Shown: positions 1-62,927, counted from the first letter of the stretch. The stretch is DNA of 64,000 nucleotides from an uncultured Planctomycetales bacterium (GCA_964520655.1 CAZFNI010000007.1:6398-70397), one strand, 5' to 3'. The notes: generated by a model from the letters alone, not told the origin. A program made the numbers and translations.

Positions 1-412
1 ATATTCCACCCGCATGATTATAGGTGAAGAAGAAATCCTGACGGTAGGTCAAAAACCATAAGCCTCCCAGAAAAGCAGCCGCAGGCGAGAACAGGCGCGC
101 AAGGCAAAGGAAGATCCCTAAGCCGGCGCCGATATTCAGGATGATCTGTCCCAAAAGAATGCTGGGGATGTGCACCCCGAAGAGTTTGAACATCAGCCCG
201 TAATAGTAGGGCATGAGCGGTCCATAGACCCACCAGAAATCTTTGTAGGGCATTTCTCCGCGTAAGACAGCCGCGGCCGCATACAGGTCCCGGCCATGGT
301 CCCCCTGGGCAATGAAACTTTGGAAATTATGGTATGGCCAGCAGATGATGACGCCGGCCATAAAAGTGAGAGCGCAAAAAAAGATAAAACGGATGTTAGG
401 GGAGCTAAACAC
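1..412 (-). CDS. Polytopic membrane protein, ArnT/PMT-like (divergent family A paralog). Only the N-terminal 137 codons are present; the gene continues past the left window edge.
   Basis: Absent from the supplied ORF track because there is no stop codon inside the window. The reverse-strand frame starts at GTG 412-410, just after an in-frame TAA. It reads MFSSPNIRFIFFCALTFMAGVIICWPYHNFQSFIAQGDHGRDLYAAAAVLRGEMPYKDFWWVYGPLMPYYYGLMFKLFGVHIPSILLGQ... and stays open to base 1. It aligns with the D(F/H)GR(E/D)(V/L)Y...G...YKD....(F/Y)G(A/P)L(P/M)PY...L.FK(I/L)FG loop of the four + strand family A genes. The track ORFs 18-233(-) and 193-519(-) lie in other frames and look spurious. Confidence 0.6.
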   Translation of the reverse strand, partial: MFSSPNIRFIFFCALTFMAGVIICWPYHNFQSFIAQGDHGRDLYAAAAVLRGEMPYKDFWWVYGPLMPYYYGLMFKLFGVHIPSILLGQIILNIGAGLGIFLCLARLFSPAAAFLGGLWFLTYRQDFFFTYNHAGGI

Positions 413-532
413 GGGGACATTTTAGTGGGAAAAGCCGGGGGCGTCAAGAAAGCGCTTGCAGAAATAATATGATCCAGCACTTGTTTTATTGTTGGACAGT
501 AGTAAACTTTAATTAGCATTTATAAAAAGATT

Positions 533-2980
533 ATGAAAACGCGCGCTGCCTACATAATGATGGTTATGCTGCTTCTGGGTGCGGGTTTCTTTTTTTGCCG
601 GCCGGCGATCGCGGATATTTATTACGCTGATCCTTCCGGCCATTTTGATGCCAATGCCATGGGGGTCGGCAATACCGTCATCGAAACGCCATCGGCAACA
701 TCAGGGGATTGTTCATCTGAAACATATAGTTCGTGCCGGGCCTCCGCTACTCCCGTAAAATTGAATGTTCCCGCTTTCAATATTGCTGTTGGAACGCAGT
801 GCAAATATATCACCGTTAATAATGGAAAAACAGTTTTTATCCCGGCGAGGACATCCAATGAATGGAAGTCGTTCATGGATTGGGCGGGAAATCCGCTCAG
901 GAATGGCGGGCAAGTGGACCTCCATGGATGCAGCGACGGGATGTGGACGGTGTGGAGCGGGTGTTCTCCGGCCTGCGGACCGCTTGCCGGGACGCAGAAC
1001 CGCCTGTGCGTGTACACCTCCAATTGGAAAGGCAATAATTGCAGCGCGCTGGATGCCTGGGGCAGCTCCAGGGCCTGCGCGGATTATTCCACCTGTGTTT
1101 GCGCGGCGAAAGACGCCAATTCGACATTTTGCGCCGGATCCGACAGCGGCTTTACGGCCATGCCGCCGCCCGTCACCTATGTTAATTTAGGTGGCTGCGA
1201 CGGGACAAAGTGCCAGGCGGCCTGTGTGGCGAATTATCACACCATCGCAGGCGGCTGCGCGATCAATACCTGCGCGCCCCTGACGGCTAATGCGACGGCA
1301 TGTAATGCCCTGACGCCTCCTGCGCATAATCAAAGCTATACGCTTGTCGCCGCTTGTTCGGCCAGCCCCTGTTTGGCCACCTGCAACAGCGGATATTTTA
1401 GAGACGGTGCGGTTTGTAATATTACCCCAGTTTGCGGCGCCAGCCCGAATACTTGCAGTGCCGGGGCACCTTCAGGTTATGACGGTCCCAAAGCCTGCGG
1501 CGGCAGTGTAGAGAATTGGACGTGCAGCAGCGGTTCGGCTTCGATCGCTTGTACCAGCACAACAGCGGCCTGTCCGTCTTGCGGCGGTTCTGCTAACACT
1601 TGCGCTGTGGGATCACCGACATCCTATAACGCGGATGTTTGCGGCGGGACATCAACATGGACATGCGTCAGTGGTGCATTTTCACTAGGGTGCAGCAAGG
1701 CCAATGCCGCGTGTCCGACCTGCGGCGGCAGCAATAATACTTGCGGCGTGGGATCACCGGCGGGGTATAGTGCCGGGGTGTGCGGCGGGTCCGCCACTTG
1801 GAATTGTAATAATGGAGGTTATACTCAAGCCTGCAGCAATGGGAATGCTGCCTGTCCGATATGCGGGGCCAGCAATAATACCTGCAACTTGGGAAGTCCG
1901 TCGGGATATAGTGCCGGCGTATGTGATGGCTCTTCCTCCTGGACGTGCAGTAACGGGGGGTATAATACTAGTTGCGGTAACCCGAATCCTGCCAATCCGA
2001 CCTGCGGGGGCAGCAATAATACCTGCGGTATAGGAACGCCGTCGGGATATGCTCTTGGTGCCTGCGGCGGGTCAGCGACATGGACATGTTCCAATGCAAC
2101 GTGTACTCCTAAAGCATGTAGCAATCCCAACCCTGCCGTCCCGACTTGCGGAGGCAGCTCGAATACATGTGGGATTGGAACCCCATCGGGGTATAGTGCA
2201 GGCGGATGCGGCGGGTCAGCTACATGGTCTTGTGATAATTCATGGTGTTCATCGCAGTCTTGCAGTAATCCGAACGCGGCTTGTCCCGTTTGCGGCGGCA
2301 GTGCCAATACCTGTTCGACAGGTTCACCATCGGGGTATGATGGTCCAAAAGCATGCGGAGGACTTACGGAGAATTGGACGTGCACAAACGGCGGTAGTTC
2401 AACGGGCTGTACGAAAGTCACAGGGGCCTGCGCGGGATGCACGTTTAGCGGAACCTGGGGAGGTGGATGCTCGGGTTCAACATCCGCGGCGCATGGTGCG
2501 ACGGGGACTGCGACGGATAGCACCGGATCGGAAACTGGTTGGATCTCGGCAACGTGCAACAATGGGACATGGACCGGAGTCTCTTCCTACTGCCAGGGGC
2601 CCTATACATTGGGGGCGTATGGCAGCTGTTCGCCATGCCGGACACGCAGTCTGGGTGGCGGATCGGAAGGGACACGCTCGCGCTCCGTAACATGCTCTTA
2701 TGACGCGTGCACGGGCGATAATACAAGCATCCAATGCTGTATTGCTTCTGATTGTCCGGTTACGTGCGGCGATGGGTCCTGCAATGGGGAAACGATCGCT
2801 GGTTGCCCAGCAGATTGCGGTTATTATTATTGCGGCGATGGCAGTTGCAATGCCCCGGAGAACCCCGGCAATTGCCTTGGCGATTGTCCGACAAGTTGTG
2901 GTGACGGATATTGCGTGGGTAGTGAAGTTTGTGATGGCTGTATCGCTGATTGCGGAGCATGTCCGCCTCCTCCAGATTAA
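533..2980 (+). CDS. Secreted cysteine-rich repeat protein (815 aa). It has an N-terminal signal peptide, a TSP1-like module, 7 tandem ~47-aa Cys/Gly/Ser repeats, and C-terminal CGDGxC repeats.
   Basis: Signal-like N-terminus MKTRAAYIMMVMLLLGAGFFFCRPAIA. TSP1-like six-Cys module WTVWSGCSPACGPLAGTQNRLCVY..NNCSALDAWGSSRACADYSTC (nt 944-1095). Repeats have the form CP.CGGS.NTC..G.P.GY..G.CGGS.TW.C.N.....C. The C-terminus has three copies of CGDG.C.....E....C..DC and ends in PPPPD. The N-terminal domain (CKYITVNNGKTVFIPA...EW..F..WA) is shared with the next gene. Confidence 0.85.
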   Translation: MKTRAAYIMMVMLLLGAGFFFCRPAIADIYYADPSGHFDANAMGVGNTVIETPSATSGDCSSETYSSCRASATPVKLNVPAFNIAVGTQCKYITVNNGKTVFIPARTSNEWKSFMDWAGNPLRNGGQVDLHGCSDGMWTVWSGCSPACGPLAGTQNRLCVYTSNWKGNNCSALDAWGSSRACADYSTCVCAAKDANSTFCAGSDSGFTAMPPPVTYVNLGGCDGTKCQAACVANYHTIAGGCAINTCAPLTANATACNALTPPAHNQSYTLVAACSASPCLATCNSGYFRDGAVCNITPVCGASPNTCSAGAPSGYDGPKACGGSVENWTCSSGSASIACTSTTAACPSCGGSANTCAVGSPTSYNADVCGGTSTWTCVSGAFSLGCSKANAACPTCGGSNNTCGVGSPAGYSAGVCGGSATWNCNNGGYTQACSNGNAACPICGASNNTCNLGSPSGYSAGVCDGSSSWTCSNGGYNTSCGNPNPANPTCGGSNNTCGIGTPSGYALGACGGSATWTCSNATCTPKACSNPNPAVPTCGGSSNTCGIGTPSGYSAGGCGGSATWSCDNSWCSSQSCSNPNAACPVCGGSANTCSTGSPSGYDGPKACGGLTENWTCTNGGSSTGCTKVTGACAGCTFSGTWGGGCSGSTSAAHGATGTATDSTGSETGWISATCNNGTWTGVSSYCQGPYTLGAYGSCSPCRTRSLGGGSEGTRSRSVTCSYDACTGDNTSIQCCIASDCPVTCGDGSCNGETIAGCPADCGYYYCGDGSCNAPENPGNCLGDCPTSCGDGYCVGSEVCDGCIADCGACPPPPD
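1430..2430 (+). repeat. Seven tandem in-frame coding repeats of about 46-48 codons inside the 533-2980 gene
   Basis: Units read from the translation: PVCGASPNTCSAGAPSGYDGPKACGGSVENWTCSSG.., CPSCGGSANTCAVGSPTSYNADVCGGTSTWTCVSG.., CPTCGGSNNTCGVGSPAGYSAGVCGGSATWNCNNG.., CPICGASNNTCNLGSPSGYSAGVCDGSSSWTCSNG.., CGGSNNTCGIGTPSGYALGACGGSATWTCSN.., CGGSSNTCGIGTPSGYSAGGCGGSATWSCDN.., CGGSANTCSTGSPSGYDGPKACGGLTENWTCTNG... The first and last units share the GYDGPKACGG..ENWTC variant. Confidence 0.8.
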
Positions 2981-3180
2981 GGATTTTCAGTTATTAGATC
3001 CCATCAATTATTTTTGATAACCATGTTGTTCTGGGTAGAACGAATGTATGTCTCTGCTGTTCTGGTTAAAAAGGCGTGATCAATTTTTAAAGTTTATAAA
3101 AGAAAGCGTTTGCCTAAAAAGTGGATTTGAGCCTTGATTTTAGACTAGGAAGGTCTAAACTTTAAGTGCTAGGAGAAAAA

Positions 3181-4887
3181 ATGACAATGCGCACAATCAC
3201 AGTTTTATTAGTCATGCTGTTTTTGAGCGCGGCTGTTTTTTTTGTCAAAGACCTTCAGGCAACAATTATCTACGGCGACGATTCTCTGAATGCCCATACA
3301 GTTGAAGGTGACAGTGAAACCACGAGTACAGCTCCCGGCGCCGATCCTGAGCAAAACCCGACAGGGGACTGCTCACAGAATCCCAATAAATCCTGCAAAG
3401 CTTCAGCGACCCCGACAAAATTAGATTCTTGGGGAACGCCGTGCAAGTACATCACGGTCAATAATGGCAAGACTTTATTTATCCCCGCCAAGAGCATGGG
3501 GGAATGGAATAATTTTCTTTCCTGGGCATCAAGCAATAATGGGGGGACGGTTTCCTTAAATGATTGTGTCGACGGAACATGGTCAGGGTGGGGCGCTTGT
3601 GTGCCTAGTACCTGCGGCTTCGGTACAGAAACGCGGACCTGTGTGTATGCAAGTCCCTATAAAGGGAAAGACTGTAGTTTGCTTGATGGGGGCAACAGCA
3701 CCCGGCCATGCACAGATTATACGCTATGCACCTGCGGTTCAAATGATGCGAATTCATCGTTCTGTGCCGGCCAGGACATTAATTTCACGGCCATGCCTCC
3801 GCCAACGACATATGTGGAAGCTGGCGGTTGCGACGCGTCAACCAAATGCCAGGCGCAGTGCGGGGCGGCATATCATGTGATACCGGGCGGCTGCGCGTTG
3901 ACAACATATACCGGGACATATCCGGCGTGTCCATCCGGATGCGGGTATATGGGAGGCCCTGTGGCACCTTTAACGTGCACTCGCGATCATGATGGGGCCT
4001 CTGTGGCGGGCGCTTTTTGTGGCAATCAAAGTTGTCCGACAACAGCGCCGTGCTGTGCTGGCGTCATTGATTGTTTCGGCGTGTGCAACGGTGGCGCGGT
4101 CACTGATTGTGCGGGGACTTGCGGCGGCAGTGCGGTCACCGATTGCAACGGTGTTTGCGGTGGCGGTGCGCAGATTGATGTTTGCGGTGTCTGCGGCGGT
4201 AGCGGGAATACCTGTCCATGCGTGGGGGCAACGCCGTGCGGCAGCCCGGGGGCGTGTTATGCGGCGGATGCATGCGGCGTGTGCGGCGGTCCAGGGCCGG
4301 GTTGTACACCAAGTGCTCCGGTATGCGGGGCGCCTAATGTCACGGTATGCAGTCAATGTACAGATGGCTGCGGGATCACCTATGTGGATTGTAATGGATG
4401 TCTTGCTGAACCAGAGCCATGTTCAGGAGCAACGCCGTGCGGCAGCCCGGGGGCATGCTATGCGGCTGATGCGTGCGGTGTGTGCGGAGGGGATGGTTCA
4501 TCATGCGCGCCACCGCCTTGTGTCTATGATTGCAATGGCGTTTGCAACGGCGGCGCGGTCGTGGATAACTGTGGAGTTTGTGGTGGACCTGGTGGCTGTG
4601 GGGGCTGCGCGGGGACAGTGGATTGCAATGGTGTGTGCAATGGCGGCGCGGTCGTGGATAACTGCGGAGTTTGCGGTGGACCTGGTGGCTGCGGGGGTTG
4701 CGCGGGTACAGTGGATTGCAATGGTGTTTGTAACGGCGGCGCGGTCGTAGATGCCTGCGGTCAGTGCGGTGGAGACGGCAGCAGCTGTTGTGCCGGAGGA
4801 TCATTTGATTGCAATGGTGTCTGCAACGGTGGGGCGGTCTTAGATAATTGCGGCGTCTGCGGCGGCTCAGGCGGATGTGGGTATTGA
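3181..4887 (+). CDS. Secreted cysteine-rich protein (about 568 aa), paralogous at its N-terminus to 533-2980. It has a TSP1-like module followed by many 'D.CGVCGG.G..C' (ADAMTS Cys-rich-like) modules.
   Basis: The track ORF opens at GTG 3166. ATG 3181 is preferred because AGGAG lies at 3171-3175. Hydrophobic N-terminus MTMRTITVLLVMLFLSAAVFFV. TSP1-like module WSGWGACVPSTCGFGTETRTCVYASPYKGKDCSLLDGGNSTRPCTDYTLC (nt 3580-3729). Repeated motifs include DVCGVCGGSGNTC, DACGVCGGPGPGC, DACGVCGGDGSSC, DNCGVCGGPGGCGGC (twice), DACGQCGGDGSSC and DNCGVCGGSGGCG. Confidence 0.85.
   Translation: MTMRTITVLLVMLFLSAAVFFVKDLQATIIYGDDSLNAHTVEGDSETTSTAPGADPEQNPTGDCSQNPNKSCKASATPTKLDSWGTPCKYITVNNGKTLFIPAKSMGEWNNFLSWASSNNGGTVSLNDCVDGTWSGWGACVPSTCGFGTETRTCVYASPYKGKDCSLLDGGNSTRPCTDYTLCTCGSNDANSSFCAGQDINFTAMPPPTTYVEAGGCDASTKCQAQCGAAYHVIPGGCALTTYTGTYPACPSGCGYMGGPVAPLTCTRDHDGASVAGAFCGNQSCPTTAPCCAGVIDCFGVCNGGAVTDCAGTCGGSAVTDCNGVCGGGAQIDVCGVCGGSGNTCPCVGATPCGSPGACYAADACGVCGGPGPGCTPSAPVCGAPNVTVCSQCTDGCGITYVDCNGCLAEPEPCSGATPCGSPGACYAADACGVCGGDGSSCAPPPCVYDCNGVCNGGAVVDNCGVCGGPGGCGGCAGTVDCNGVCNGGAVVDNCGVCGGPGGCGGCAGTVDCNGVCNGGAVVDACGQCGGDGSSCCAGGSFDCNGVCNGGAVLDNCGVCGGSGGCGY
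4528..4884 (+). repeat. 93-bp (31-codon) tandem coding repeat, about 3.8 copies, starting at 4528, 4621, 4714 and 4807
   Basis: Each unit encodes DCNGVCNGGAV(V/L)D(N/A)CG(V/Q)CGG(P/D/S)G... Copies 1 and 2 encode identical peptides (DCNGVCNGGAVVDNCGVCGGPGGCGGCAGTV). I counted 8 nucleotide differences between them, all at synonymous third positions. A second, dispersed repeat encoding GATPCGSPGACYAADACGVCGG occurs near 4227 and 4427. Confidence 0.85.
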
Positions 4888-4944
4888 TATCTATTGAATC
4901 CATTTTAGCATTGATATCGCTTTAAATATGTGCAGAATAAAAGC

Positions 4945-6756
4945 ATGTCCGTGCGCAGAAAAGATGTCCTCATTGACGGCTTTTTCCTGTCGATCTTCCT
5001 TCTAATCTTCGTATCCTTCACCTGGGGCAAATGGATCCATCCGATCGTTGATTTCGGCCGAGAGGTTTATATCCCCTGGGCGATCGATCAGGGGGCCGTT
5101 CTCTACAAAGACCTGGCATTTCTTTTCGGTGCCTTGCCTCCTTACTGGAATGCTCTGCTATTTAAGATCTTTGGCGCGTCTTTGCAGACGATCCATGTTG
5201 TGGATGTGTTGGTAGTTTTTCTTTGCGCCGCATTGATCTATCGTTTTTTCTACTGCACCATGAACCGCTTGACAGCCTTCATGGTCACCCTCTCTTTTCT
5301 TATCCTGTTTGTCATGGATTTTTATTATTATGAATCCAATATGGCGTTTTTATCGCCATTCACGCACAGTTATTTTTACGCGTTCCTTTTTGTATTAGCG
5401 GCGGTCAATATCTGGCAATGTTTTCTCATGCGTCCAAGCAGGGCCTGGATATTTTTTTTAGGGATTTGCGTCGGCGGGGTTGTTGTATCACGGCTGGAGA
5501 TCGCGGCAGCATTCTTCGTGGCATTGTTGATCGGGTTTGCCTTTTATCTCCAGCGGTTAAAACCAGGATCACGGCAAACGCTGTATTATATGGGGTGTTT
5601 TATCGGGGGATTATTGACCCCGATCGCTTTGTTCTGGGCGTATTTCTTAATGTATTTACCGCCCTTACCCGCGTTTCTTTCCATCATTGGGTATAATCCT
5701 CAATGGCGTGAGGTAGGGGATCTGTATTTTTATCAATTCTTGGGAGGGTGGAACAACTGGGAGTTAAATGTGCTCTGGATGATCCGCAATTTGCTGGTTT
5801 ATGCGGCGCTGTATGCTTCATTTCATCTGATGCTGATCGCTCGTTTAAGCTTCAGTAAGAAAGAATGGCTGAAAGGTGTTTTCTCCTTCGCGATCTTTTG
5901 TATGGTCTACGGTGGGGTCGCGTTCTATATCAGTGATATATATGCCCGGGGTGTGTTTCGAGGCGCGATCCCGGTAGTGGCGGCGTTGATCGGGATCAGC
6001 CTGTTCAATATTTGCCAGAACAAAGAATGTGCCTGCCGCGACAGGCATTTGTCAATTGTGGTTTTGGCTGTCTTCGCGTTCTTGCTGATGTTCAAGGTCC
6101 CATTACAGTTGACCTTGCAGGACTATGCGCTGATCTACGGGATGTTTGGGGTGTTGATGTTCGTTGCCGGATGTGTGTATTATCTGCCGGAAAGATATCA
6201 ACAGTATCCAGGCGGGAGGAATTGGGTTGCGTTATTAGTTTGCGCGCTGCTGGTGCTGGTCATGGTGCGCGTCGGGATCGTTTCATGGGGAGGGTTATCC
6301 AGCAAGAAAACACTGGTTGGGAGAGGGGAAAATGTGCTATGGACGTTTGATAGTCCCGCGCCTTTTGGTTCCGGCGGCAGCGTGAAAAGTTTTCTGGACT
6401 GGTCCCGGGAACACTTTGCCCCTGAAGATACGTTTGTTGTTTTGCCGGAAGGAATAATGCTCAACTTTTTGACGGGGCATCGGATCACCGGCCGGCATGT
6501 CACATATATGCCGGCGGAAGTAACGACTTTTGGTGAAGCCAGCATGCTTCAAGAACTAAAAATGTCCCCGCCGGATTATGTGGTGGTTGTCGTCAAGCAG
6601 ACAAATGCCTATGGAGGACTGGACCTGGGCGTGAATTATTTAAATGATGTGTATAGATGGGTAAAGGATAACTATACCGTAGTATGGAGGTCGGGGAGCA
6701 AGAAGAAAGATAGTTTCCTGATGTCAGTGTATCAGAAAAAAGAGCGGAAGAGGTAG
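4945..6756 (+). CDS. Family A1: polytopic membrane protein, ArnT/PMT (GT-C)-like N-terminal loop, with a C-terminal soluble domain
   Basis: The ORF is open from GTG 4930. ATG 4945 (MSVRRKDVLIDG..) matches the paralog N-termini. Motif W.HP.VDFGREVYIPWAIDQGAVLYKDLAFLFGALPPYWNALLFKIFG is followed by many hydrophobic spans. C-terminal domain: FVVLPEGIMLNFLTGHRITGRHVTYMPAEV..FGE..ML..L...PPDYVVVV...N.YG....G.NY......W....Y..VW. Confidence 0.6.
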   Translation: MSVRRKDVLIDGFFLSIFLLIFVSFTWGKWIHPIVDFGREVYIPWAIDQGAVLYKDLAFLFGALPPYWNALLFKIFGASLQTIHVVDVLVVFLCAALIYRFFYCTMNRLTAFMVTLSFLILFVMDFYYYESNMAFLSPFTHSYFYAFLFVLAAVNIWQCFLMRPSRAWIFFLGICVGGVVVSRLEIAAAFFVALLIGFAFYLQRLKPGSRQTLYYMGCFIGGLLTPIALFWAYFLMYLPPLPAFLSIIGYNPQWREVGDLYFYQFLGGWNNWELNVLWMIRNLLVYAALYASFHLMLIARLSFSKKEWLKGVFSFAIFCMVYGGVAFYISDIYARGVFRGAIPVVAALIGISLFNICQNKECACRDRHLSIVVLAVFAFLLMFKVPLQLTLQDYALIYGMFGVLMFVAGCVYYLPERYQQYPGGRNWVALLVCALLVLVMVRVGIVSWGGLSSKKTLVGRGENVLWTFDSPAPFGSGGSVKSFLDWSREHFAPEDTFVVLPEGIMLNFLTGHRITGRHVTYMPAEVTTFGEASMLQELKMSPPDYVVVVVKQTNAYGGLDLGVNYLNDVYRWVKDNYTVVWRSGSKKKDSFLMSVYQKKERKR

Positions 6757-6760
6757 GCCC

Positions 6761-8566
6761 ATGTCGCCGCGAAAAACAGGATTGTTGTGGGATGCCGCGG
6801 TCCTTTTGACCGTAGCCGTTGTGTTTATCATATTGACTGGCGGAAAGTGGACCCATCCGGTCAATGATTTTGGCCGGGAAGTCTACATCCCCTGGGCGAT
6901 CGATCAGGGGGCGGTCCTTTATAAAGACCTGGCTTATCTTTTTGGTGCTTTGCCGCCCTGCTTAAATGCGCTGCTGTTTAAATTCTTTGGAGCTTCCTTA
7001 CAGACGATCCAACAATTTGATCTTTTGGTCGTCGCCCTGATGACCGCGTTGATCTACCGATTTTTCTATCTTGTCTGGTGCCGGTTATCCGCATTAGCTG
7101 CTGCGGCATCATTTTTAGTTCTTTTTGCTTTTGATTATCTGCCGTTTGGTTCAAACATGTATTATTTAAGCCCCTATTCTCACAGTTATTTCTATGCTGG
7201 ATTGTTTACCCTCGCGATCTTTAACACACTGGAGAAGTATTTTAAGGATCAGCGTAAGCGCTGGCTTTTATTGACAGGGGTTCTTTTAGGTGCGGCATTG
7301 TTGTCCCGTCTGGAGTTATTTATCATCATATTCATCGCATCGATGTTCGGGCTGGTGATCGATGCCTGTGCCAAGAACATGGCGCTGCGGGAAAGGTTCC
7401 GGAACTGGATGCTGGTGTTGGCGGGGGTTACGATCGCGGTCCTGCCGTTTTTGATATATTTCTCGATGCATATGCCCGTGTCAAAAGCGTTAATGTCGAT
7501 CGTCGGGTTTAATCCACAGTGGCAGCAGGTGTCTGGCATCTATTTGTATAGAAATCTGGCCGGGCTTATCCATGTTCCGATGAACCTGCAGATGTTGGGC
7601 ATCGTTCTGGGAGCATACGCGGCGTTGTATTTAGGATTGAACGCGCTTGGTCAGGCGTTTTTGCTGCGGCGCGCGGGGAGGGATCATTTTCAGGTATTTG
7701 TTCTGGGGGCGTATTTCTTTACGGTTTATGGGGCTGTGCTGTATGCGGTCAATCACGGCTGGGCGCATGAGATCTTTCGTGGAGCGGCCGTTTGTGTGAT
7801 CTTAGCCGGTATTCTGGCGTATAGAAAAATGCGTCAAGCGCAGGATGCGGATAGCCGCACCAGGGCGCTGCTGATGCTGATGTTCTGTCTTTTTGCCGGG
7901 CTGATGCTGTTTAAAGTGCCGCTGTCGATGAAATTATTCAATTACGCGCTTTTTTACGGCATGCCCGCGGGGCTTGTCACAGTTATCGTCTGGGTCAAGG
8001 TGGTCCCGCAGATCATGCAGGAACGCTATAAGTCGGGCGCTGTCAGTCAGCTGTTTGTCTTATTCTTGCTTGTCAGCGTCGGAATCCAGGTGTTTGGCGC
8101 GTCCATCCATGGGCTTGGGGCGAGACAAAAGAAAGTCGGTCTGGGTCCCAATGCGCTGTGGGCGTTGGACAGGACTTCACCGTGGGGCGCGGGTGATGAT
8201 GTGGATCTATTCCTGAAATGGGCCAAAGAAAATCTTAAGGCCGGCGAGCGCTTCGTGGTCCTGCCGGAAGGCATCATGCTGAACTTTTTAACGGGGCATA
8301 AGATCTCCGGCAGGCATTTAACGTTTATGCCGGCGGAGATGGTCACCTTTGGCGAGAAAAGCATGTTGGGGGCATTGACGGAAGATCCGCCGGAATACAT
8401 GGTGCTTGTCCATAAAAGCAATGCTGAATACGGAGGGATCGTCCTGGGGCAGAATTATGCGCTTGAGATAGTCGGTTGGTTGAAAGAACATTATCAGCGG
8501 GTATGGATCTCCCGGGAAAAAAGGCCGGGGAATTTTTCAATTGAGGTCTATCAACGAAGATCATGA
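6761..8566 (+). CDS. Family A2: polytopic membrane protein, ArnT/PMT (GT-C)-like
   Basis: 601 aa, with GGAAGAGG upstream. NDFGREVYIPWAIDQGAVLYKDLAYLFGALPPCLNALLFKFFGASLQTI is nearly identical to A1 at both protein and DNA level. The C-terminal FVVLPEGIMLNFLTGHKISGRHLTFMPAEMVTFGE...PPEYMVLV is conserved. Confidence 0.6.
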   Translation: MSPRKTGLLWDAAVLLTVAVVFIILTGGKWTHPVNDFGREVYIPWAIDQGAVLYKDLAYLFGALPPCLNALLFKFFGASLQTIQQFDLLVVALMTALIYRFFYLVWCRLSALAAAASFLVLFAFDYLPFGSNMYYLSPYSHSYFYAGLFTLAIFNTLEKYFKDQRKRWLLLTGVLLGAALLSRLELFIIIFIASMFGLVIDACAKNMALRERFRNWMLVLAGVTIAVLPFLIYFSMHMPVSKALMSIVGFNPQWQQVSGIYLYRNLAGLIHVPMNLQMLGIVLGAYAALYLGLNALGQAFLLRRAGRDHFQVFVLGAYFFTVYGAVLYAVNHGWAHEIFRGAAVCVILAGILAYRKMRQAQDADSRTRALLMLMFCLFAGLMLFKVPLSMKLFNYALFYGMPAGLVTVIVWVKVVPQIMQERYKSGAVSQLFVLFLLVSVGIQVFGASIHGLGARQKKVGLGPNALWALDRTSPWGAGDDVDLFLKWAKENLKAGERFVVLPEGIMLNFLTGHKISGRHLTFMPAEMVTFGEKSMLGALTEDPPEYMVLVHKSNAEYGGIVLGQNYALEIVGWLKEHYQRVWISREKRPGNFSIEVYQRRS

Positions 8567-56004: not shown

Positions 56005-57462
56005 ATGAAAGTTATGGGTTTTCGCAAGAAATTAGATGATCTATTCGGGATAGACATACGGGCTTTGGCCATTATGCGCATCGCCTTCGCTTTATTATTG
56101 ATCGTGGATCGATTCCGTGATCTACCGTTCGTTAAAGAGTATTATTCGGATGCCGGTCTTTTGCCTCTAGCCTATGGAAAGATGCTGGTGCCACGCGAGT
56201 CGTTTAGTTTATTCTTCTTTAACGGTTCTTTGGAATTCCAGTATTTCTTACTATTCGTGTTGCTTGTGCTAACGGTGGGACTGTTGGTGGGTTATTATAC
56301 GCGCTTTTGCACGGTGATGATGTGGGTCTTGCTGGTCTCGATGCATAACCGCAATTGGCTTATCCTGGGCGCGGAGGATAAACTGTTGGATGTGCTGTTT
56401 CTCTGGTTCATATTCCTGCCGTGGGGGGCATGTTATTCGATCGACAGGCTGCGCCATCCGGAAAGAAGGCCTCCGGCAAGGGTCTTGTCAATGGGGTCCG
56501 CGGCGTTCTTGCTCCAGGTCAGTTTTTTTTACATTTTTGCCGGTTTTCTTAAATCATTCCCGGAATGGACCAGGGATCATAATGCCGGGTATTTGCTCTT
56601 AAGCCTTCATGAATTTGTGAAGCCTTTAGGCACAAGCCTGCTTTCTTATCCCAAATTCTTGGAATGGATGACGGTATTGAGCTTGAACATGGAGCGTTTC
56701 GGCCCGTTCTTCTTTTTTATCCCTTTTCAAACGGTCCCTTTTCGATTTGTCATGGTCATTATCTTTGTGATCTTTCATTTGGTCCTGATGGCCACGTTAG
56801 AGACAGGGATCTTTCAATGGGTGTGTTTGATCATGTTCATCGGGTTCTTACCCACAGCATTTTTTGACAGGATCCTGGGTAAATATGAACCGCACCTCCC
56901 GCATGAGAAGGGAAATGCCCGAGAGAAAAGATCAGATGGAGGGGCGGGATTGCCGTGGTATCTGAACCTGATCGTTGGATTTCTGATCCTTTATGGGTTT
57001 TGTTGGAATTTGCATGATCTCTTAAAGCCTGGCAGCCAGATGCCCAAAAGCGTGAAGTGGATCGGATGCGCGCTTAATCTGCGGCAGCACTGGGGGATGT
57101 TCGCTCCCGGCCCTATGCGTGATGATGGCTGGTTCGTGATCCCAGGGAGATTACGTAATGGGACAGAGGTTGATCTGATGAAGTCAGACGGGGCTCCCGT
57201 CGTTTGGGAAGAGCCTCCTTCTATCATGGATCTAAATCGATCGGATCATTTAACGCTTTATTATATGAATATCCACCGTCCACATTATTCGCATTTTGTC
57301 CACCCCTGGGGGAAATATTTGTGCCGGGAATGGAATGCGACACATTCAGAAGAAGAACAAGTTCTTACATTCAAGATCATATTCATGGAGCGGATGATAC
57401 AAAAAGATCTTCAGCCGCCTAAAATGAGAAAAATCGTTCTGTTCAATCAAAGATGTTTTTGA
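56005..57462 (+). CDS. HTTM-domain polytopic membrane protein (vitamin-K-dependent gamma-carboxylase / SdpB-like family)
   Basis: The N-terminus LFGIDIRALAIMRIAFALLLIVDRF.....YYSDAGLLP....LLVGYYTRF..VMMWVLLVSMHNRN.....ED.LL.VLFLWFIFLP.GA.YSIDR is typical of HTTM domains. The C-terminal half contains WGMFAPGPMRDDGWFVIPG.L.NGTEVDL. Confidence 0.65.
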   Translation: MKVMGFRKKLDDLFGIDIRALAIMRIAFALLLIVDRFRDLPFVKEYYSDAGLLPLAYGKMLVPRESFSLFFFNGSLEFQYFLLFVLLVLTVGLLVGYYTRFCTVMMWVLLVSMHNRNWLILGAEDKLLDVLFLWFIFLPWGACYSIDRLRHPERRPPARVLSMGSAAFLLQVSFFYIFAGFLKSFPEWTRDHNAGYLLLSLHEFVKPLGTSLLSYPKFLEWMTVLSLNMERFGPFFFFIPFQTVPFRFVMVIIFVIFHLVLMATLETGIFQWVCLIMFIGFLPTAFFDRILGKYEPHLPHEKGNAREKRSDGGAGLPWYLNLIVGFLILYGFCWNLHDLLKPGSQMPKSVKWIGCALNLRQHWGMFAPGPMRDDGWFVIPGRLRNGTEVDLMKSDGAPVVWEEPPSIMDLNRSDHLTLYYMNIHRPHYSHFVHPWGKYLCREWNATHSEEEQVLTFKIIFMERMIQKDLQPPKMRKIVLFNQRCF

Positions 57463-61731: not shown

Positions 61732-62005
61732 TATGGAACATATGACTTTAATCGAAAAGATCGGTATCGCGGGCTCCATCGGCCTGCCGTTATGGAATAT
61801 CCCGCTGATCATCAATATTTGCCGCCGGCGCTCCTCAGCGGACCTCTCCGCCAGCTGGCTGATCGGGGTGTGGGTCTGCTCGCTGTTGATGCTGCCCAAC
61901 GGGCTTTTGTCCAAGGATGTGGTCTTAAAAGTGTTTAGCATCGTTAACATAACTTTATTTTCAGGGGTGGTGATCGTTGCCTTCAAATACCGTCAAAAAA
62001 AGTAA
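61724..62005 (+). CDS. Small 3-TM membrane protein (possibly PQ-loop/SemiSWEET-like)
   Basis: About 90 aa with three hydrophobic segments (IGIAGSIGLPLWNIPLIINI, WLIGVWVCSLLMLPNGLL, VLKVFSIVNITLFSGVVIVAF). The family assignment is tentative, and the start may be ATG 61733. Confidence 0.4.
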   Translation: MCDMEHMTLIEKIGIAGSIGLPLWNIPLIINICRRRSSADLSASWLIGVWVCSLLMLPNGLLSKDVVLKVFSIVNITLFSGVVIVAFKYRQKK

Positions 62006-62927
62006 ACTCTTAAAAAGCGGCATTGTCAGTATCGTCGGCCGTCCCAATGTGGGCAAGTCGACGTTGGTCAACGCCATCATTGGCGAGAAGATCTCGATCG
62101 TCTCTGATATACCCCAGACCACCCGCCAGCAGATCAGGGGTATCTATACGGATGAGCGCGGGCAGATCGTGTTCATTGACACGCCGGGTCTCCATTTGGG
62201 GGGCGATAGCCTGGATAAGTTCATGAGCCGTTCCTCCATGGGGGCGCTGCAGGGCGTCGATGTTGTCATCCATTTGGTCGACAGCAGCGAAGGGGTCGGC
62301 AAGGAAGAGAATTTTGTCGTCAATCAATTAAAGAAATTGAAGGTTCCCATTATCGTGGGGATGAATAAAGTTGATTACAAGCAGGGTAAATGCATCCAGG
62401 AATATATCGAATTGTGGGAACAAGCGACGGGCAAATCGATCCATGAATTAAAGAATTTGACGCTCTTGCCGCTTTCCGCGCTTAAAGGCACCAACGTTGA
62501 GAAATTGATCGAGCTTGTGTTCGAGTTATTGCCCGAAGGGCCGATGTTATATCCGGAGGATGTGATCACTGACCTGCCCCAGCGCCTGGCCATGGCGGAC
62601 TTGGTCAGGGAAAAGTTATTTCAGACCATGCGTGAAGAAGTGCCGCATTCGATCGCGGTCAAGATCGAGCATGTCAGCCCCCGCAAAGGCAAGGTTCTGC
62701 TGATCAAAGCGCTGATCATCGTTGAGCGTGAGACGCAGAAAGAGATCGTGATCGGCAAGAAGGGGGAAGTTCTCAAGAACATCGGTACGGCCGCCCGCGC
62801 GGACTTGGAAGAACTGGTTGGACAGAAAGTGTTCCTGGAGCTCTACGTGAAGACCACGAAGAATTGGCGCGATAATCCATCCGTGCTTGAGGACATGGGC
62901 TATATCTTTGAAGGGGCGGCATGCTAG
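61977..62927 (+). CDS. era: GTPase Era
   Basis: G1 is GRPNVGKST, G2 is PQTTR, G3 is DTPG and G4 is NKVD. The C-terminal KH domain reads VREKLFQTMREEVPHSIAVKIE. Confidence 0.9.
   Translation: MPSNTVKKSKLLKSGIVSIVGRPNVGKSTLVNAIIGEKISIVSDIPQTTRQQIRGIYTDERGQIVFIDTPGLHLGGDSLDKFMSRSSMGALQGVDVVIHLVDSSEGVGKEENFVVNQLKKLKVPIIVGMNKVDYKQGKCIQEYIELWEQATGKSIHELKNLTLLPLSALKGTNVEKLIELVFELLPEGPMLYPEDVITDLPQRLAMADLVREKLFQTMREEVPHSIAVKIEHVSPRKGKVLLIKALIIVERETQKEIVIGKKGEVLKNIGTAARADLEELVGQKVFLELYVKTTKNWRDNPSVLEDMGYIFEGAAC

Follow-up and report, generated by a model that had tools for sequence, protein, structure and literature searches.

Silent divergence between adjacent units of a 93-bp coding repeat in a predicted bacterial secreted cysteine-rich protein

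In ADAMTS proteins, the cysteine-rich domain ends in the segment "CGVCGGDNSSC", and this is the stretch of ADAMTS5 and ADAMTS13 with which the modules described here align. Microbial proteins carry tandem arrays of a module with the consensus DCxGxxNGxAxxDxCGVCGGDxSxC (alignment A2). Environmental sequence data abound in this module type, which is essentially unannotated. Some of the microbial relatives bear the NCBI label "dockerin type I repeat-containing" and some carry precomputed PF27846 or PF26745 assignments; one of them, P0004, has a separate Dockerin_1 domain at residues 561-605. A literature search on the motif and on bacterial TSR/ADAMTS-like repeats found nothing relevant.

Here, we describe a gene for a secreted cysteine-rich protein of 568 aa that contains such modules. 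It lies in a stretch of 64,000 nucleotides from an uncultured Planctomycetales bacterium, referred to below as the window. The gene ends in an array of 93-bp repeats, which we read with good confidence as an old duplication, in tandem, of a disulfide-rich module of 31 codons, extracellular in location, that would have drifted silently under selection at the protein level. The gene, its upstream neighbour and its main parts are the following.

533-2980, + strand: upstream paralogue, 815 aa, with a matching N-terminal domain and a different cysteine-rich repeat
3181-4887, + strand: gene for the 568-aa secreted cysteine-rich protein
3181-3261, + strand: N-terminal hydrophobic helix MTMRTITVLLVMLFLSAAVFFVKDLQA (helix at residues 2-19 in the AF2 model, one TM-like segment)
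3361-3897, + strand: conserved N-terminal domain of about 180 residues, common to the paralogue at 533-2980 and to P0005
3562-3738, + strand: thrombospondin type 1 repeat (TSR)-like segment inside the N-terminal domain, WSGWGAC...CGFG...R.C, with six Cys
4069-4215, + strand: degenerate half-modules and one full module, DCFGVCNGGAVT / DCAGTCGGSAVT / DCNGVCGGGAQIDVCGVCGGSGNTC

The likely start is the ATG at 3181, with AGGAG upstream at 3171-3175. Other starts proposed for the same gene are a GTG at 3166 (ORF lister) and position 3187 (another gene call). The protein is P0121 and is identical, except for the start, to P0001 of a public collection. Its N-terminal helix may serve as a signal peptide, presumably cleaved, or as a membrane anchor. 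Scans of the whole protein against Pfam and NCBIfam assigned no family, and the Dockerin_1 (PF00404) profile had no match in it.

The conserved N-terminal domain is known only in this protein, in its paralogue P0002 (43% identity, 533-2980) and in P0005 (33% identity, alignment A1). Within this domain, the segment at 3562-3738 resembles a TSR in its WxxW and CxxxCGxG motifs, its conserved Arg, its six Cys and its length of about 55 residues. The PF00090 TSP_1 profile scores it at 20.7 bits, with E = 5e-4 (residues DCVDGTWSGW...CTCG), just missing the gathering score of 21.6. The paralogue reaches 15.7 bits and the homologue P0005, at 25.8 bits, is above the same cut-off. The top Foldseek matches in PDB are all TSRs (properdin, F-spondin, C6/C8), at weak E-values of 0.07-0.3. 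In the AF2 model, strands are placed at residues 123-126, 139-142, 145-150 and 171-175, with pLDDT values of 54-85 per 10 residues over 121-180.

Small Cys/Gly modules form a mosaic in the C-terminal half. The AF2 model is moderately confident, with a mean pLDDT of 59.8 overall; in the repeats, where it builds a regular ladder of single beta-bridges, one every six residues, blocks of 10 residues reach 66-92. This predicted geometry fits tiny knotted units stacked rigidly on one another. Judging from its architecture, a TSR-like domain together with CGVCGG modules, the protein may be a surface or extracellular protein for binding or adhesion.

The paralogue at 533-2980 has at least 7 copies of a 47-aa unit, CPxCGGSxNTCxxGxPxGYxxxxCGGxxxWxC. 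TRF reports an array in it at 1714-2050 with a period of 141 bp, and further Cys-rich motifs are found at its C-terminus.

In the 568-aa protein, TRF reports a period of 93 with 3.6 copies at 4528-4862. The array as a whole, 4528-4884, forms the 3' end of the + strand ORF. Each module consists of a 20-residue core, DCNGVCNGGAVVDNCGVCGG, and a Gly/Cys linker. A second kind of repeat, a 22-codon segment, is present twice upstream of the array.

4225-4290, + strand: 22-codon segment GATPCGSPGACYAADACGVCGG, first copy
4426-4491, + strand: 22-codon segment GATPCGSPGACYAADACGVCGG, second copy
4528-4620, + strand: unit 1 of the 93-bp array, 31 codons (TRF and recount)
4621-4713, + strand: unit 2, with the peptide of unit 1 and 8 synonymous differences (recount)
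4714-4806, + strand: unit 3, with a conserved core (N14A, V17Q) and the divergent linker DGSSCCAGGSF
4807-4884, + strand: unit 4, cut short at 26 codons, with the stop directly after it at 4885-4887

Recounting and translation show that 4528-4620 and 4621-4713 encode the same peptide, DCNGVCNGGAVVDNCGVCGGPGGCGGCAGTV. The two units differ at exactly 8 bases; each of these is a third codon position and every change is synonymous, as had been claimed from the sequence at the outset; the recount returned an identical list. The differences lie at offsets 11, 14, 20, 44, 53, 71, 77 and 86, and the codon swaps are GGC/GGT, GTT/GTG, AAC/AAT, TGT/TGC (three times), GGC/GGT and GGG/GGT, with 6 transitions and 2 transversions. 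Among random single-base changes in unit 1, 25.4% are synonymous, which gives P = 1.8e-5 for eight of eight; with mutation limited to transitions, P is still no higher than 1.5e-4. By the Nei-Gojobori method, S = 23.7, N = 69.3, dS = 0.45 and dN = 0, and the 95% upper bound on omega for this pair alone is 0.155.

The two copies of GATPCGSPGACYAADACGVCGG behave in the same way. They are not in tandem, being 201 bp apart, and all 8 of their differences are third-position synonymous changes. Pooling both intragenic pairs, 16/16 differences are synonymous (P = 3.9e-10, omega < 0.071). The other units of the array depart from this picture. Non-synonymous differences from units 1 and 2 number about 16.5 in unit 3, most of them in the linker, and 4 in unit 4, whose synonymous sites are saturated but which has 23/26 residues in common with them. 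The description of the copies as differing only at synonymous sites, given in the sequence-only reading, is thus correct for units 1 and 2 and does not extend to units 3 and 4, which carry amino-acid changes.

Two other long ORFs overlapping the region, +3989-4750 and -4376-4903, were considered and rejected, since all differences fall on their codon position 2. An Rfam scan of 3000-5200 at E<=1 had no match, so this interval is not an RNA element.

Sequence comparison establishes tandem duplication and protein-level constraint on the modules. After the duplication, units 1 and 2 would have gathered neutral synonymous substitutions, up to a dS of about 0.45. Selection on the protein would have purged every amino-acid change in them, because this small knotted fold consists almost entirely of Cys, Gly and conserved Asp residues. 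With the cysteines presumably in disulfides and the glycines at turns, almost any replacement should be deleterious. Neighbouring modules of the unrelated homologues P0010 and P0003 also have pS well above pN. The linker counts mildly against our reading. It is poorly conserved relative to unit 3, and in units 1 and 2 it encodes an identical peptide with 3 synonymous changes; a linker under loose constraint would be expected to be slightly less conserved.

As no diverged orthologue was available, dN/dS comes from the 16 intragenic substitutions only. A scan of GTDB representative genomes with the N-terminal-domain alignment found no diverged orthologue, and a protein search for orthologues brought up nothing beyond the identical sequence and the paralogue in the locus. 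A degenerate DNA pattern for the 20-aa core matched nothing in either JGI metagenomes or GTDB genomes. On these 16 substitutions, the earlier proposal of purifying selection on each module is borne out by a dN of 0 and by both bounds on omega. The dN/dS between units, which had been suggested as a check, is significantly below 1 for units 1 and 2.

We then aligned the window to a second assembly of the locus (L002, GCA_041910255.1, contig JAYRRC010000016.1). The two differ by 472 mismatches over 12,980 aligned bases, with no internal indels, and dS in the neighbouring genes is 0.18-0.24. Look-ups of P0121 and of the proteins encoded downstream had turned up no record, which this difference in strain explains. 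Positions 93-5066 of the window and 9561-14534 of L002 form a block of 4,974 bp that is 100% identical, covering both cysteine-rich genes and their flanks. The dS of 0.45 between units 1 and 2 is about twice the inter-strain dS at the neighbouring genes, so the duplication does not stem from recent slippage, in line with the first interpretation of the repeat.

The identical block is itself unusual in its surroundings. In the genes adjoining it, 6-8% of bases differ between the strains, and a second patch of low divergence is seen at about 6001-7000 of the window. The block could reflect recent recombination, a gene-specific sweep or strain chimerism in metagenome assembly. An independent assembly, Logan contig SRR26835473_106357, is identical to the window up to 4458 and ends there, before the array, on which it bears neither way. 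Its end falls inside the second GATPCGSPGACYAADACGVCGG copy, where there is no repeated k-mer of 27 or longer; low coverage and a minor variant are both possibilities.

Three other explanations of the array were weighed against an old duplication under protein-level selection. In the first of these, the array or its copy number would be an artefact of assembly, with units 1 and 2 being strain variants threaded in tandem, or with units collapsed or expanded. The source is a metagenome-assembled genome, the second assembly is also metagenome-derived, the Logan contig from run SRR26835473 stops short of the array, and the identical block could come from shared reads as well as from chimerism. Against this, every k-mer of 27 or longer from 4400-4900 is unique in the window, both strands considered, so the de Bruijn assembly graph is unbranched across this interval, and the junctions between units are unique sequences. 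The whole array lies inside the identical block, so its four-unit structure was assembled alike twice, in assemblies that differ in their flanking bases as counted above. The reading frame runs through unbroken, and each of the units has matches in a module family of wide occurrence. We consider an artefact highly improbable, and the original claim that the array is genuine stands on the absence of repeated k-mers and on the second assembly.

A different proposal is that the dissimilarity between units is itself selected, guarding the array against RecA-mediated deletion or slippage while the peptide stays unchanged. The DNA would be held below the identity length that recombination needs, as a natural counterpart of the "codon scrambling" that serves to stabilise synthetic repeat genes. 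In its favour, units 1 and 2 are identical over at most 23 consecutive nt and the longest exact repeat within 4200-4890 is 26 nt, close to the shortest identity on which RecA recombines efficiently in E. coli; two strains also have an identical array. However, when codons are drawn independently from the usage of the gene or of the window, 18.6-19.5 of the 31 codons are expected to differ between units 1 and 2, and only 8 do (P <= 2e-4 for so few). Common descent thus still shows in these two units, which have by no means been recoded to the maximum. Units 1 and 2 differ from unit 4 at 12-13 codons, with 13-14 expected, which is saturation, and no pair of units exceeds the expectation for independent codons. 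Nor is the spacing of the 8 differences more even than random: the longest identical run of 23 nt compares with a mean of 26 nt, and the probability of a run no longer than that observed is 0.47. Furthermore, the silent-only pattern recurs in the non-tandem pair at 4225-4290 and 4426-4491, the synonymous excess is likewise seen in unrelated homologues, and neutral drift with purifying selection predicts all the observations. Selection against perfect DNA repeats, as had been suggested, is unsupported by these counts and by the random spacing, and we regard it as unlikely. The conserved frame might also be that of an antisense ORF at 4524-4721 on the - strand, encoding a proline-rich product of 65 aa, in which 7/8 differences between units 1 and 2 are silent and the remaining one is an H/Q change. 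That ORF has a TTG start and is confined to units 1-2, and its silent pattern is a geometric by-product of third positions that coincide with those of the sense frame. The sense frame, on the contrary, has 568 codons, an RBS and homologues with conserved Cys positions. We give the antisense frame hardly any credence and judge this ORF to be a by-product, not a gene.

We take the silent-only divergence of the adjacent units, in the old duplication preferred here, to be ordinary purifying selection. The array is a clean textbook case of individual constraint on each small disulfide module, in an old and correctly assembled array, and matters little alone. The surrounding locus, with its arrays of putative glycosyltransferases and its 5-kb identical block, may be of more interest than the repeat.

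After both cysteine-rich genes, about 45 kb of the + strand (4945-50442) is largely occupied by three families of paralogues, with 7-13 predicted TM segments.

4945, 6761, 8576 and 12695, + strand: polytopic family A, with a weak PMT_2 match
20713, 31113, 35905 and 42359, + strand: polytopic family B, with a weak match to the YfhO C-terminus on 20713
29062, 33454, 39895, 45284 and 48298, + strand: polytopic family C

Genes for a sulfatase-like protein, an FkbM methyltransferase, AsnB, a GMC oxidoreductase and a 14-TM protein with a spermidine-synthase-like domain are found among them. The three families may be glycosyltransferases of the GT-C type. As pure speculation, polytopic proteins beside two proteins with WxxW TSR-like motifs might recall the C-mannosylation of TSRs in eukaryotes. 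The locus is flanked by genes for HTTM-domain proteins, which have a membrane domain like that of vitamin K-dependent gamma-carboxylase, at 56005-57459 of the window and at 2897-4249 of L002. One of the two HTTM genes adjoins a radical SAM gene (L002 4558-5481). The Era protein encoded at 61977-62924 has 66-70% identity to proteins named Candidatus Omnitrophica, with other relatives reaching up to 91%. By these sequence identities, the host lineage is probably Omnitrophota.

In terms of homologues, a phmmer search with the array (4507-4884) against 1.84 billion representatives of 50%-identity clusters gave 1,843 matches at E<=1e-3, with 573 at E<=1e-10 and 75 at E<=1e-30, and up to 22 matched stretches per protein. 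Besides P0121, homologues have at most 54% local identity over at least 20% of the query; those with 55%, 62% and 63% cover 9-17% of it. A module profile built from 14 modules (A3) was also searched against PDB. It matched only ADAMTS5 (9rwm_A, residues 18-41, E = 4e-4) and ADAMTS13 (3ghm_A, residues 248-271, E = 0.064). With a single sequence, the match to ADAMTS5 chain 9rwm_A has E = 0.03 and falls in 4069-4215.

The PF19236 ADAMTS_CR_3 profile had no match, either in the whole protein at E<=0.1 or in the repeat regions alone at E<=10. Its threshold is exceeded by two homologues, P0004 (34 bits) and P0009 (25.9 bits), which cover profile positions 91-115 only. By Pfam criteria, the 568-aa protein is not a member of ADAMTS_CR_3, and it belongs to a large unannotated microbial family of CGVCGG modules. 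The hairpin at the end of the ADAMTS cysteine-rich domain is a probable homologue of the module, which can be likened to it. Scans against Pfam and NCBIfam detected no metalloprotease, disintegrin or spacer domain in the 568-aa protein.

The value of the protein is modest and descriptive: it documents, in a bacterium that is probably a member of Omnitrophota, a secreted combination of a TSR-like domain with an iterated motif from the end of the ADAMTS cysteine-rich domain. With the end of that domain, its modules have in common a 24-residue pattern, C-x12-C-x2-C-x6-C, with D.CGVCGGD.S.C, and they lie downstream of a TSR-like domain within one protein, as in ADAMTS proteins. They correspond only to the last quarter or so of the 115-residue ADAMTS_CR_3 domain (24-25 positions), iterated in tandem, and they differ from it in an extra Cys (DCxGxC), in the Cys of the linker and in the bacterial host. 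With the microbial tandem CGVCGG proteins, the resemblance extends to the consensus, the period of 26-31 residues, the tandem arrangement and a divergence dominated by silent changes. Those relatives have a D(G/N)SxC linker, whereas the linker of the 568-aa protein is Gly/Cys-rich and its modules are joined to an N-terminal domain of restricted distribution.
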